Below are positions 38,726 through 41,700 of a stretch of 64,000 bases of DNA, piece by piece. Source of the DNA: Burkholderiales bacterium. Lineage in GTDB: Bacteria > Pseudomonadota > Gammaproteobacteria > Burkholderiales > SG8-41. Each line of letters opens with the position of its first letter. Positions within the stretch are counted from its first letter, which is position 1. Under the pieces are notes generated by a model, which was not told the DNA's origin, made no database searches, and saw nothing but the letters and a program-made list of their open reading frames with translations. The translations under genes were made by a program, and so were the position numbers. The stretch is taken from NCBI GenBank assembly GCA_022843705.1, contig JALHND010000002.1:16857-80856 (forward strand). Reading direction: 5' to 3'.

Positions 38726-41700
38726 ATGAACGCGCCGGCAGACCAAGCAGGCGCCGGAGGCTGGCAGTTCTGGATCGACCGCGGCGGCACCTTCACCGAC
38801 ATCGTCGCCCGCCGCCCCGACGGCACACTCGTCACCCGCAAGCTGCTGTCCGAGGATCCGGCACGTTACCGCGACGCCGCACTCGCCGGCATCCGCGAAC
38901 TGCTGGGTGTCGCCCGCGATGCCGCGATTCCGGTTGCAGAGATCGACGTGGTGCGCATGGGCACGACGGTCGCCACCAATGCACTGCTCGAACGCAGGGG
39001 CGAACCGGTGGCGCTGTTCATCACCCGCGGCTTTGCCGACGCCCTGCGCATTGCCTGGCAGAACCGGCCGCGCATTTTCGACCGCCACATCGTGCTGCCC
39101 GAACTGCTCTACGGCGAGGTGTGGGAGGTCAATGAACGCTGTGGCGCGCAGGGTGAAGTCATCGATGCGCTGGACGCCGTCACCCTGCGCCGCGACCTGG
39201 CCGCCGCCCGCGCCAGGGGTTATACGGCGATCGCCATCGTTTTCATGCATGGCTACCGTCATCCCGCCCACGAGCAGGCCGCGGCGGCACTCGCCCGCGA
39301 AGCCGGATTCACCCAGGTCTCGGTCTCCCATGAAGTCAGCCCGCTGATGAAACTGGTCGCGCGCGGCGACACCACGGTCGCCGACGCCTACCTGACGCCG
39401 GTGCTGCGCCGCTATGTCGAGCAGGTACGCGCCGAACTGCCGGGCGTGCGCCTGCTGTTCATGCAGTCGAACGGCGGATTGACCGACGCGTCGCGTTTCC
39501 GCGGTCGCGACAGCATTCTCTCCGGCCCCGCCGGCGGCATCGTCGGCGCCGCGCGCACCGCCCTCGCCGCGGGCTGCGAACGCATCATCGGTTTCGACAT
39601 GGGCGGCACATCCACTGACGTCGCGCATTTTGCCGGCCGCGACCTGTCGGCGCTGGAACGCAGCTTCGACGCCCAGGTTGCCGGTGTGCGGGTGCGTGCG
39701 CCGATGCTGTCGATCCACACCGTCGCCGCCGGCGGCGGATCAATCCTGCATTTCGATGGCTCGCGCATGCGCGTCGGCCCCGATTCCGCCGGCGCAGATC
39801 CGGGTCCCGCCTGTTATGGCAAAAGTGGCCCGGCGACCATCACCGACTGCAATGCGCTGCTCGGCCGCATCCATCCGGATTTTTTTCCGCGGGTGTTCGG
39901 CAGCGACGGTCGCCAGCCGCTGGACCTGGCCGCGGCGCGCCGGCAGCTTGCTGCGCTGCATCACAAAATTATCAATAAAAACAATGACTTACAATCAATC
40001 GAAGCGATGGCCGAAGGTTTCCTGCGGATCGCCGTCGAAAACATGGCCAACGCGATCAAGAAAATCTCGGTGCAGCGCGGCCACGACATCACGACCTACA
40101 CACTGGCCTGTTTCGGCGGCGCTGCCGGACAACATGCCTGCCTGGTCGCCGACGCGCTGGGCATGCCGCAGGTGCTGATCCATCCGCTCGCCGGCCTGTT
40201 GTCCGCCTACGGCATGGGCCTAGCCGACATCACCGCGATGCGTGAACTGGCCCTTGAAGCGGTGCTCGACGATGCAGCGGTGCAACGGGGCAATGCGGCA
40301 ATCGCCACGCTCGGCACCGCACTGCGCGAAGAAGTACGGGGCCAGGGTGTAAGGGCGGAAATGATCACGCTGCACCCGCGTGCCCATCTCAAGTATGCCG
40401 GCACCGACACCACGCTCACCGTCGACTGGGGGAGCGCGGAGACAATGCGCGCCGCCTTCACCGCGCAGTACCTCGAGCGTTACAGCTTCCTGATGCCGGA
40501 GCGTGCGCTGGTGATCGAAGCACTGTCGGTGGAAGCGATCGGCCGCCACGAGGCGCCTGCAGCCCGGGTTGCAGACCTGCCTGCCGCAAGCGCAGCACCC
40601 GCGGCACGGACCCGGCTCCATGCCGAAGGTCAATGGCACGACGCACCGGTCCATCACCGCGACAGGCTGGCGCCGGGCACGCGCATCACCGGTCCCGCCC
40701 TGCTCGCGGATGCCGGCGCGACGACCGTGGTCGAGCCCGGCTGGCAGGCTGAAGTCTCACCACGCGGCGAGCTGCTGCTGACGCGCCGCGCCGCACGCGC
40801 GCCGGCACGCGCCGGCACCCGCGCCGATCCGGTGCTGCTGGAAGTCTTCAACAATCTCTACATGTCGATCGCCGAACAGATGGGCGCGACACTCGCCAAC
40901 ACCGCGTATTCCGTGAACATCAAGGAGCGCCTCGATTTTTCCTGCGCGCTGTTTGATCACGACGGACAGCTGATCGCCAACGCGCCGCACATGCCCGTGC
41001 ACCTCGGCTCCATGGGCGAAAGCGTGAAGGCGGTGATCGCCGCCTCGCGCGGCAAGCTGCGTCCGGGCGACGCCTGGATGCTCAACGACCCCTATGCCGG
41101 CGGCACCCACCTGCCCGACATCACGGTGATCACGCCGGTCTTCGACGCCGCCGGCCGCGAGGTGCTGTTCTACACCGGCTCCCGCGGCCACCACGCCGAC
41201 GTCGGCGGCATCACACCCGGTTCGATGCCGCCGGACAGCCGCCACATCGACGATGAAGGCGTGCTGATTTCCGGCTTCCTGCTCGCCCGCGACGGGCGCC
41301 TGCGCGAAGCGGAAACCCGCGCGCTGTTCGCCTCGGCGAAACATCCGGCCCGCAACATCGACCAGAACATCGCCGACCTGCAGGCGATGATCGCCGCCAA
41401 CCGCAAGGGGGCGCTGGAACTCGGAAAAATGGTCGCGCAATACGGCCTCGACGTCGTTGCAGCCTACATGCAACACGTGCAGGACAACGCCGAGGAGGCG
41501 GTGCGCCGGGTCATCAGCCGGCTGCGCGACGGCAGCTTCAGTTATGAAATGGACCACGGCGCGGTGATCCGCGTCGCGATCCGCGTCGATGCGGCAACCC
41601 GCAGCGCCGTCATCGATTTCAGCGGCAGCTCCGCCCAGGGCGCCGACAACTTCAACGCGCCCTACGCGGTGACCATGGCCGCGGTGCTCTACGTCTTCCG

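Follow-up and report, generated by a model that had tools for sequence, protein, structure and literature searches.

The window, that is, the whole stretch of 64,000 nt analysed here, carries on its forward strand an ORF of 1218 aa (38726..42382, +), whose product combines the Pfam domains Hydant_A_N, Hydantoinase_A, Hydant_A_C and Hydantoinase_B (PF05378, PF01968, PF19278 and PF02538, respectively; E-values 1e-202 to 8e-10) in one chain. Its PDB relatives are the N-methylhydantoinase structures 7hk5 and 6yra, the former aligning over residues 16-1215 with E = 1.6e-136, and the gene, hereafter the host gene, belongs by these matches to the fused HyuA/HyuB hydantoinase/oxoprolinase family, with 5-oxoproline or another lactam as its putative substrate. 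Inside it lies an AT-rich island (39962-40000, GC ~0.2), which encodes residues 413-425 and contains the lowest-GC 30-mer of the gene (0.17). A sequence-only reading had described this stretch, CACAAAATTATCAATAAAAACAATGACTTACAATCAATC (+), as 38 nt in frame from 39963; the stretch is present, with a length of 39 nt and a start at 39962, one nucleotide off, and it is in frame within a gene that is intact and conserved by ORF, Pfam matches and orthologues. The same reading had placed it in a region of variable length between the HyuA-type ATPase subdomains; that the place is structurally permissive agrees with the AF2 model, where it covers the end of a helix (401-416) and a loop (417-424), and with 7hk5, in which this stretch is 6 residues shorter.

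Within the island, a 28-nt motif copy, AAAATTATCAATAAAAACAATGACTTAC (site 1, 39965..39992, +), is marked out by matrix score, GC content and synonymous conservation; in 60-nt windows, GC drops here to 0.37 vs ~0.65-0.70 in the flanks. A sigma-70 promoter or an intrinsic terminator at the coding copy was rejected on scans of 38000-43500, which gave no promoter-like sites and terminator-like sites at chance level only, and on a manual -35/-10 search in both orientations, in which nothing conserved came up. A -1 frameshift heptamer (T AAA AAC) at site 1 and an internal in-frame start codon after it were likewise discarded, being neither canonical nor conserved among orthologues. An assembly artefact is ruled out, as the loop type is shared by the 99%-identical orthologue P0001, which comes from a different assembly, and by 90 more orthologues.

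The motif has a consensus of 28 nt (AAAWWNATCAATAAAAWCAAWTACTTAT) and is represented by seven intergenic copies in the window. The two that had been cited for comparison, at 21180 and 62340, exist at 21178..21205 (+), flanked by a hydrolase gene (-) and an SGL/gluconolactonase gene (+) that diverge from each other, and at 62339..62366 (+), spanning the stop codon of a UDG-family gene (62346-62348) and the start codon of an EamA gene (62365). Five additional copies, all on the minus strand, make the family larger than had been noticed. The copy at 11107..11134 (-) fills the spacer from the stop of 11134..11625 (-) to the ATG of an LprI-family gene at 11108; the copy at 14202..14229 (-) overlaps the stop of ORF 14225..15481 (-), with a SnoaL-like gene 131 nt downstream; the copy at 27652..27679 (-) occupies the Aldedh-to-Glyoxalase spacer and is the positional orthologue of L081 153-180; the copy at 50502..50529 (-) lies between the convergent stops of PrpF and DUF533/TerB, and is positionally orthologous in L001, L081, L082 and L084; and the copy at 58573..58600 (-) lies between a lyase gene, whose stop is inside the motif, and a 2-hydroxyacid dehydrogenase gene. 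A regulon of a single transcription factor was rejected, as the genes flanking motif copies have no shared function.

That the stretch at site 1 belongs to the intergenic family, as had been proposed, was confirmed with a degenerate 22-mer, shuffles and a weight matrix. The 22-mer has 5 matches vs 0 in 100 shuffles. Scored with a matrix built solely from 31 intergenic instances, coding copies in seven genomes reach 32-43 bits and intergenic copies 26-46; the site-1 copy reaches 33-35 bits against matrices made from intergenic copies, and 1 in 1.4 million composition-matched shuffles reached an observed score. The likeness of the coding copy to the motif exceeds what chance or AT-richness alone would give. 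An Rfam 15 scan of the whole window returned one tRNA (34985-35057) and otherwise nothing at gathering score, a literature search with strings of the motif sequence gave irrelevant matches only, and a topical search nothing specific. A metagenome scan with an 18-nt core yielded 120 loci, mostly AT-rich noise, with the full motif in 12 GC-rich contigs only, and a phage scan found the full motif absent from every GC-rich viral contig. A shorter core follows four tRNA CCA ends in other contigs; these matches were rejected as family members or integrase att sites, with no further full copies there and no integrase adjacent in L139.

In 367 kb of lineage DNA, 58 matches were counted, 14 in the host gene, 44 between genes and none in any further long ORF; every locus sampled surrounds the host gene, and the finding of no other coding copies covers ~270 kb of neighbouring coding DNA. 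Motif density in the lineage is about 1 per 6-8 kb. Genomes of the motif type gave 15 matches in 128 kb, vs 1 in 1.04 Mb from 77 other genomes, and the syntenic sister-clade locus L212 carries neither the motif nor an AT island. The motif is lineage-specific, strongly over-represented and oriented. Intergenic copies are positionally orthologous across genomes at the PrpF stop and in the Aldedh-to-Glyoxalase and DUF6352/ABC_tran spacers; turnover is seen upstream of CMD, where L002 and L084 have a copy, L082 a half-decayed one, and the window and L081 none. The two ends of the consensus do not form an inverted repeat, 50 of 52 copies lack the flanking direct repeat of >=3 nt that a target-site duplication would leave, and no consistent or conserved hairpin was found in or beside motif copies. 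Strong hairpins adjoin few copies only, and L082 has a separate canonical terminator next to one copy, on which grounds the motif was rejected as the U-tract of opposite-strand terminators.

The coding copy had been interpreted as an insertion that adds 11-13 residues, and as direct evidence for past or present mobility. Comparison with orthologues contradicts both: the true motif-less orthologues have a loop of identical length, EIRDATGDTRTP-EQVAEGF, which is GC-rich and aligns 1:1 with the motif-type loop, and only the more distant N-methylhydantoinase 7hk5 is shorter at site 1. In a check extended to distant orthologues, the homologous segment, an NKN(N/K)xLQS(I/T) loop, was present in 91 of the 121 closest orthologues at identities down to ~69%, an outcome that the sequence-only reading had itself named as contradicting its view; in ten genomes, the DNA encoding this loop is of the same AT-rich kind. 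In a neighbour-joining tree, one clade of 98 comprises all 91 proteins with site 1. As this tree is weakly supported near its base (strict monophyly in 5/50 bootstraps), the number of independent origins is uncertain; the tree and the loop sequences indicate that site 1 is an old copy, vertically inherited in a clade of uncultured Burkholderiales.

In relatives without site 1, the motif is found elsewhere in the gene, near residue ~608 or ~672. Site 3 (~608) is a hypervariable linker, equivalent to residues ~604-625 of the host protein (40535..40600, +), where the window has no motif and the AF2 model a pLDDT <50 at residues 614-619; it carries the motif in L209 and L210, in a second reading frame. 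Site 2 (~672), equivalent to residues ~672-685 (40739..40780, +) and likewise without motif in the window, carries it in L205 and L206 in the third frame (SEINELNHIVMTR), again without length gain over motif-less orthologues. Where site 1 reads AAT AAA AAC AAT (NKNN), site 3 reads TTA AAA ACA AAT (LKTN) and site 2 GAA TTA AAT CAT ATA GTT ATG (ELNHIVM); in the frame of site 2, the CAA TAA of the consensus would be a stop, and is altered there. One in-gene copy is found in 14 of the 15 lineage genomes, the exception being L211, which has the intergenic motif and no in-gene copy.

For nucleotide-level conservation, every 12-codon window of the gene was compared among 8 species with 70-92% amino acid identity. 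Synonymous codon identity at the loop is 0.91 (0.908) vs 0.62 (0.622) for the gene overall, the highest of all windows, and the loop has the lowest GC3 in the gene (0.25-0.34 vs 0.79). Its codons include TTA, which locally accounts for 0.5% of Leu, CAA (9% of Gln), TCA (5% of Ser) and ATT (12%). In L001, TATCAA is retained with a shift of 1 nt, which turns I-I into I-S. These patterns point to purifying selection on the nucleotides, not on the peptide.

Copies are found in convergent, divergent and co-directional spacers, the latter with ~10 sense and ~6 antisense copies, and the antisense copy in the DUF6352/ABC_tran spacer is positionally conserved (L205, L207). The coding sites, all three of them, have the sense orientation, which is forced in coding DNA: two frames of the reverse complement contain stops, and the third gives a hydrophobic, KYLILLIF-type peptide. 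IHF sites have the consensus WATCAANNNNTTR preceded by an A-tract, lambda H' being an example. In a fixed register of the motif, this core is matched exactly by 15 and with one mismatch by 19 of 40 intergenic copies, and with one mismatch (T to A) by all 12 coding copies examined, a fit that is not independent of the motif definition; the A replaces the consensus T in ATCAA in half of the intergenic and in all coding copies. The geometry, an A-tract followed by 8 bp and then the core, resembles that of lambda H'. In the window, the only stretch evaluated for spacing, the 8 copies are distributed more evenly than random placement would give (CV 0.46, P ~0.02), and this holds only with the coding copy included. 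Gap-filling alone is a weak explanation for that copy: 15 ordinary spacers are available within the 22.9 kb gap that holds it, and in L084 and L208 other copies lie 2.5-3.4 kb from the in-gene copy.

Taken together, the data show that a lineage-specific, 28-nt cis-acting motif overwrote the codons for one helix end of the HyuA domain and for the inter-helix loop behind it, one residue for another and with no change in protein length, and that nearly every genome of the lineage keeps exactly one in-gene copy, at ~412, ~608 or ~672, each of these permissive positions being read in a different frame. We propose that a protein reads the motif as duplex DNA, and that the in-gene copy would be a binding site needed by the locus, possibly as an intragenic regulatory or an architectural site. 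Duplex DNA is favoured over RNA because copies occur in all spacer types, some are antisense, and no conserved hairpin adjoins them. The most plausible reader would be an architectural or nucleoid-associated protein; our best guess for the motif is a protein-binding site of IHF-like geometry. What the motif is and how the coding copy evolved can be stated with high confidence, the putative DNA-binding mechanism only tentatively; for evolutionary history and duplex-DNA site together, which make up the best overall explanation, we consider the chances to be about even. Against IHF itself stand the information content of the motif, ~35-40 bits and thus far above that of known IHF sites, and the conservation of the AC before TTA and of AATAAAA, neither of which the IHF consensus needs. 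Moreover, classical operators rarely lie as far from the promoter as these sites, which are 1.2-2.0 kb inside a gene.

A signal at the level of RNA, in which an unstructured, G-free and A-rich transcript segment would serve RNase E-type processing, SD-less initiation through ribosome standby or S1, or Hfq binding, and in which the in-gene copy would set decay or processing of the 3.7 kb message, is in our estimate unlikely. It would account for the fact that 6 of the 7 intergenic copies of the window start where a co-oriented gene upstream has its stop codon, and that several abut the next ATG without a Shine-Dalgarno sequence (11107 and 62339 in the window, 13702 in L084). The Hfq distal face prefers (AAN)n, and the core AAU AAA AAC AA(U/A) forms four consecutive A-A-N triplets; the shorter core behind tRNA CCA ends would also fit. 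The sense orientation of all three coding sites appears to speak for RNA as well, but is forced by the stops in the reverse complement, and in co-directional spacers antisense copies are common (~6/16), one of them positionally conserved. Copies between convergent genes have no start codon on which to act, a stable RNA-protein complex would be badly placed in a translated region, mere A-richness would not preserve TCAAT...ACTTAT, and no Rfam family was matched.

It is rather improbable that the motif serves a naturally competent lineage as a DNA uptake signal sequence, with point mutations accrued through uptake bias and recombination (molecular drive). It would qualify by being lineage-specific, massively over-represented, asymmetric, ~28 nt long and present in both orientations, with a hint of even spacing, and its coding copies, which lie in different frames and at residues of low conservation, originated with no indels, as in USS/DUS (PMC2817400). 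In Pasteurellaceae and Neisseria, however, 35-65% of USS/DUS lie in ORFs, spread across many genes (PMC2817400), whereas here ~270 kb of other coding DNA holds 0 copies and 14 of 15 copies of one gene carry one. This looks like locus-specific selection rather than diffuse drive, because the coding copies are confined to the host gene; density (~1 per 6-8 kb) is also roughly 5-8 times below that of known cases.

A translational or protein-level constraint, that is, a rare-codon pause for co-translational folding or a selected NKNN peptide to which the likeness of the intergenic copies would be incidental, is very improbable. The rare codons listed above do form a dense cluster, and all three sites lie in the HyuA half, ahead of the HyuB domain; but selection on the peptide is ruled out by the unrelated peptides that the three sites encode, the match to the intergenic matrix goes far beyond composition, a pause signal would not require an identical 28-nt sequence, nascent-chain lengths would differ widely (~412 vs ~672), and sister lineages have the same enzyme without an AT island. 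A small mobile repeat, RPE- or MITE-like and inserted in frame with a gain of 11-13 residues, is largely refuted and hardly credible: although the coding copy is a genuine family member at a permissive helix-loop junction, intergenic copies turn over between genomes (upstream of CMD), the motif occupies three places in the gene across lineages, and Rickettsia has documented cases of in-frame repeat insertion (PMC10969869), the loci show no gain in length at either site 1 or site 2, no TIRs, target-site duplications or palindrome, an element of only 28 nt with no transposase association seen, vertical inheritance of site 1 in 91 proteins without patchiness among close relatives, positional orthology of intergenic copies and, at site 2, a consensus stop that was edited out, as in situ evolution predicts.

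The proposed duplex-DNA site can be placed among known systems. It shares with USS/DUS an asymmetric motif that is lineage-specific and genome-wide, is written into ORFs by substitution, in more than one frame and at poorly conserved residues, and imposes characteristic peptides (Findlay & Redfield 2009, PMC2817400), and differs in its coding copies, which are found in one gene only (14/15 genomes) and nowhere in ~270 kb of other coding DNA, in its density (~1 per 6-8 kb as opposed to ~1 per kb), and in being AT-rich within a genome of 65% GC. As with Rickettsia palindromic elements (RPEs) and MITEs, a mainly intergenic repeat also occurs in frame within an intact, conserved enzyme gene, where the protein structure permits it (PMC10969869). 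RPEs are ~150 bp long and palindromic, and their insertion adds 30-50 residues (PMC10969869), whereas the motif has 28 nt, no TIR, TSD or palindrome, adds no residues, descends vertically and is under purifying selection at the nucleotide level. With IHF sites it has in common that it is asymmetric and AT-rich, with an A-tract, ~8 bp and a putative 13-bp core, and that intergenic copies occur whatever the orientation of the neighbouring genes. In E. coli, intergenic repeats (RIP/RIB BIMEs) contain IHF sites as well. Unlike IHF sites, the motif contains more information, extra invariant positions and an A for the consensus T in half of its copies, and sister Burkholderiales with IHF genes of their own lack it.

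Protein-binding DNA sites within genes include the H-NS downstream regulatory elements in proV and bglG, and the parS, NBS and SBS sites in ORFs. The in-gene copies would resemble these as a putative protein-binding signal superimposed on codons, kept by selection and flexible in its exact position, and TCAATAAAAT in the motif resembles the H-NS high-affinity sequence TCGATAAATT at 8 of 10 positions. Those intragenic sites are, unlike the motif, short, degenerate or palindromic, and the motif differs from them in lying 1.2-2.0 kb from the promoter; we know of none reported to relocate among three positions and three frames of one gene.

The 28-nt motif may be the recognition site of an undescribed, lineage-specific and genome-wide system of uncultured Burkholderiales. 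With the oxoprolinase-family operon dependent on a copy of its own, the site would then have been re-created three times or more, at different positions and using every reading frame; we regard this combination of claims as possible, though doubtful. Candidates for such a system are a new architectural or regulatory protein that binds DNA sequence-specifically, and an uptake-signal 'dialect' of bacteria other than Pasteurellaceae and Neisseriaceae.

The locus is an unusually clean natural case in which a non-coding signal and the genetic code compete for the same bases. Three frames, three protein positions and avoidance elsewhere in the sampled coding DNA separate selection on nucleotides from selection on peptide without experiment, with the three alternative sites as natural replicates. 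For annotation, it follows that AT-rich islands in GC-rich ORFs are not automatically insertions, horizontal patches or assembly errors; for this clade of uncultured Burkholderiales, the in-gene copies give a handle on an undescribed genome-wide motif.

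The AT-rich stretch comprises 39 nt at window positions 39962-40000 (CACAAAATTATCAATAAAAACAATGACTTACAATCAATC), so the sequence-only reading, which had recognized it, placed its start one base late. It lies in frame within the ORF 38726..42382 (+), which encodes a 1218-residue fusion of Hydant_A_N, Hydantoinase_A, Hydant_A_C and Hydantoinase_B domains (Pfam), with the N-methylhydantoinase structures 7hk5 and 6yra as closest solved relatives. In 60-nt windows, GC content is 0.37 at the stretch versus 0.65-0.70 in its surroundings; the lowest-GC 30-mer of the gene falls within it, and its codons are strongly atypical (local shares: TTA 0.5% of Leu, TCA 5% of Ser, CAA 9% of Gln). 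No promoter-like site was found in the oxoprolinase region. Separately, the divergent kinase/cNMP-binding | oxoprolinase intergenic region (38575-38725) carries conserved blocks, GGCGTGATTAGAACC and GAGCGTCAACC...CGATGCGCTAACATG, which are common to the window and the related loci L081 and L082, are partly present in L083 and L084 (at ~9830-10000 in all four loci), and are probably the promoter or operator of the oxoprolinase operon.

Both intergenic sequences to which the stretch had been likened were found in the window, together with five further intergenic copies. Eight of the 12 AT-rich islands of this 65% GC window are motif copies, and a degenerate 22-mer yielded 5 matches against 0 in shuffles. 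A consensus (AAAWWNATCAATAAAAWCAAWTACTTAT) and matrix were derived from 31 intergenic instances of the window and related genomes. On this matrix, coding copies from seven genomes scored 32-43 bits and intergenic copies 26-46 bits, and composition-matched shuffles reached an observed score once in 1.4 million; the coding stretch is therefore a true family member and not merely AT-rich, which bears out the earlier assignment. The matrix gave 15 matches in 128 kb of seven motif-type genomes versus 1, on a contig of 36% GC, in 1.04 Mb of 77 other genomes, and the sister-clade locus L212 (23.7 kb) contained neither motif nor AT island, though syntenic (Aldedh-to-Glyoxalase, PrpF). Coding and intergenic copies therefore belong to one lineage-specific system. 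A description of the motif was not found in the literature, nor a match in Rfam.

Among the AT-rich islands outside the family, 47584-47626, which separates an MFS-like gene from small minus-strand ORFs, has a palindrome (TGAGAATCATTCTCA) resembling a Fur-box-like operator, and hemP genes occur in the syntenic stretches of L081 and L084; 25093-25122, where the gene 24114..25121 (-) starts, has dyad symmetry (ATTGTATACAGTGAATACAATTCACACAAA) and is a possible operator. Unrelated to the motif are two pairs of 33-nt inverted repeats (169-265 and 2653-2742; 88-91% complementary, ATCCTG-type units, TTTATCCTGTAAATCCTGTCCATCCTGTTAATT), which form near-palindromes ~2.4 kb apart flanking two minus-strand genes. 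At least five TctC/Bug-family solute-receptor paralogues occur in the 64 kb (repeat families D1-D6, Pfam for one; regions 7462-9522, 17772-18815, 42414-43391 and 45014-45985), an expansion typical of Burkholderiales. On other GC-rich metagenome contigs, an 18-nt core (AATAAAATCAATNACTTA) begins where each of four tRNA genes, for Glu, Pro, Leu and Thr, ends in CCA, in all cases on the same strand as the tRNA (L139 9751-9768, -; L153 2087-2104, +; L161 1197-1214, +; L198 83-100, +), and on a viral contig (L317 ~9434, -). Full-length copies were absent elsewhere on these contigs, and no integrase adjoined the L139 match; the core might serve in 3' processing, mark an att site or represent the ancestral source of the motif. 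The same core lies in a ~60-nt block (GGCACATGGCGAGACGAAACACAATAAAATCAATAACTTACACATTGCTTTACGACACACAT), near-identical in three unrelated GC-rich metagenome contigs (L135 at ~234-295, L138, L186) and possibly a leader or small RNA under conservation.

The sequence-only reading regarded the stretch as an in-frame insertion of an element that is or was mobile, adding about 11-13 residues. In an alignment of the best 120 homologues of the host protein, every residue of the segment has a counterpart in the equally long loop of motif-less orthologues (...EIRDATGDTRTP-EQVAEGF...). The NKN(N/K)xLQS(I/T) loop is present in 91 of 121 proteins, and its occurrence in orthologues down to ~69% identity is the outcome that the sequence-only reading had itself named as refuting it; an assembly artefact is ruled out, since a separate assembly encodes a protein 99% identical to this one. 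Only three of 80 species-representative genomes have the loop, all uncultured Burkholderiales MAGs and all encoding it by the same AT-rich DNA (3/3); the remainder have a GC-rich loop of equal length. In an outgroup-rooted tree, all 91 motif-type proteins fell within one clade of 98, with weak support near the base (strict monophyly in just 5/50 bootstraps). Terminal inverted repeats and target-site duplications were looked for at motif copies and not found. Acquisition of the motif at site 1 (residue ~412) thus involved no length change. One sub-branch has four extra residues directly after the site-1 motif (NKNNGLYSSLTSTE; L084 11234-11290; proteins P0018, P0053, P0055-P0057), so the loop tolerates length change. 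The earlier interpretation is supported in part: the stretch does belong to the family and is tolerated in a permissive loop, but insertion and mobility are not borne out.

In a codon alignment of eight species (70-92% protein identity), synonymous codon identity at the loop was 0.908 versus 0.622 overall, and GC3 was 0.25-0.34 versus 0.79, the highest and the lowest value, respectively, among the gene's 12-codon windows. AAT AAA AAC AA(T/A) is unchanged in all eight, and the variable bases of the motif coincide with the variable residue position of the loop (D/N/Y/G...). L001 retains TATCAA at a 1-nt offset, so that its peptide reads I-S instead of I-I although the DNA is preserved. Selection thus acts on the nucleotides.

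The motif clade also includes seven proteins without the motif, nested among the others, and DNA was obtained for five of these. L205 and L206 have an ordinary loop at residue ~412 and a motif copy at residue ~672 (site 2; in L205, 24/28 consensus matches and 39.8 bits), encoding SEINELNHIVMTR where AEVTPLNHLLLTR is usual, at unchanged length. In L209 and L210 the motif lies within a hypervariable linker, at residue ~604-613 (site 3; 41 bits in L210). Its reading frame differs at each site (NKNN, LKTN, ELNHIVM), and in the frame in which the consensus gives CAA TAA the actual sequence is GAA TTA. In every case, the 30-mer with the lowest GC content in the gene is the motif copy. Exactly one in-gene copy was present in 14 of 15 lineage genomes, the sole exception being L211, with an intergenic copy and none in the gene. 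The 58 matches in 367 kb of lineage DNA, all from loci sampled around the host gene, comprised 14 in this gene, 44 intergenic and 0 in other long GC3-rich ORFs. The site-1 loop of the motif-less subgroup (ATGDxRTP) looks ancestral, unlike a decayed motif; separate gains at different sites are therefore at least as likely as relocation. Residues 1-700 were modelled with AF2 (pTM 0.73): around site 1 the model shows a helix (401-416), a loop (417-424, NKNNDLQS) and a helix (425-451) at pLDDT 78-88, and 7hk5 is shorter by 6 residues there; site 2 lies on the last beta-hairpin ahead of the HyuB domain, and the site-3 linker includes residues with pLDDT below 50. All three are permissive places.

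Intergenic copies fill short spacers in every gene arrangement, and their ends often supply stop or start codons. Several have positional orthologues in other genomes (PrpF stop, Aldedh-to-Glyoxalase, DUF6352|ABC_tran). Others turn over: the spacer upstream of CMD has a copy in L002 and L084 and a half-decayed one in L082, but none in the window or L081. Matrix matches and gene tables gave ~10 sense and ~6 antisense copies in co-directional spacers. Neither a consistent hairpin adjoining the copies nor a common function among their flanking genes was found. The motif is shown to be a cis-acting nucleotide signal that is embedded in codons, kept by purifying selection and required in the host gene or close to it, with positional turnover.

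Such a signal would be read as duplex DNA by a putative binding protein, given that strand bias is lacking, that an antisense copy is conserved and that copies occur in convergent spacers. The geometry resembles that of strong IHF sites such as lambda H', in that an A-tract is followed, after 8 bp, by WATCAANNNNTTR, and this core occurs with at most one mismatch in 34/40 intergenic copies. The motif resembles an IHF site to this extent; however, its information content is far above that of IHF sites, there are additional invariant positions, A replaces the consensus T in many copies, and sister lineages have IHF yet lack the motif. Spacing of copies in the window is more even than random only with the coding copy counted (CV 0.46, P ~0.02), a suggestive but weak pointer to an architectural role. 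A rival to duplex reading is an A-rich signal at the RNA level, with which the adjoining stop codons, the SD-less starts after copies and (AAN)4 in the motif are consistent. Another rival is an uptake signal sequence; such sequences evolve in a similar mode, but known examples are dispersed over many ORFs (PMC2817400). A pure promoter or translation-start signal is excluded by the copies between convergent genes, a rare-codon pause by the specific 28-nt identity and three unrelated peptides, and a mobile insertion, for which RPEs (PMC10969869) are the comparison case, fails on length, structure and inheritance.

The stretch is dual-use coding DNA, cis-signal and codons at once. Cis-signals superimposed on codons are a known phenomenon; what stands out here is gene-specific retention, at three sites and in three frames.
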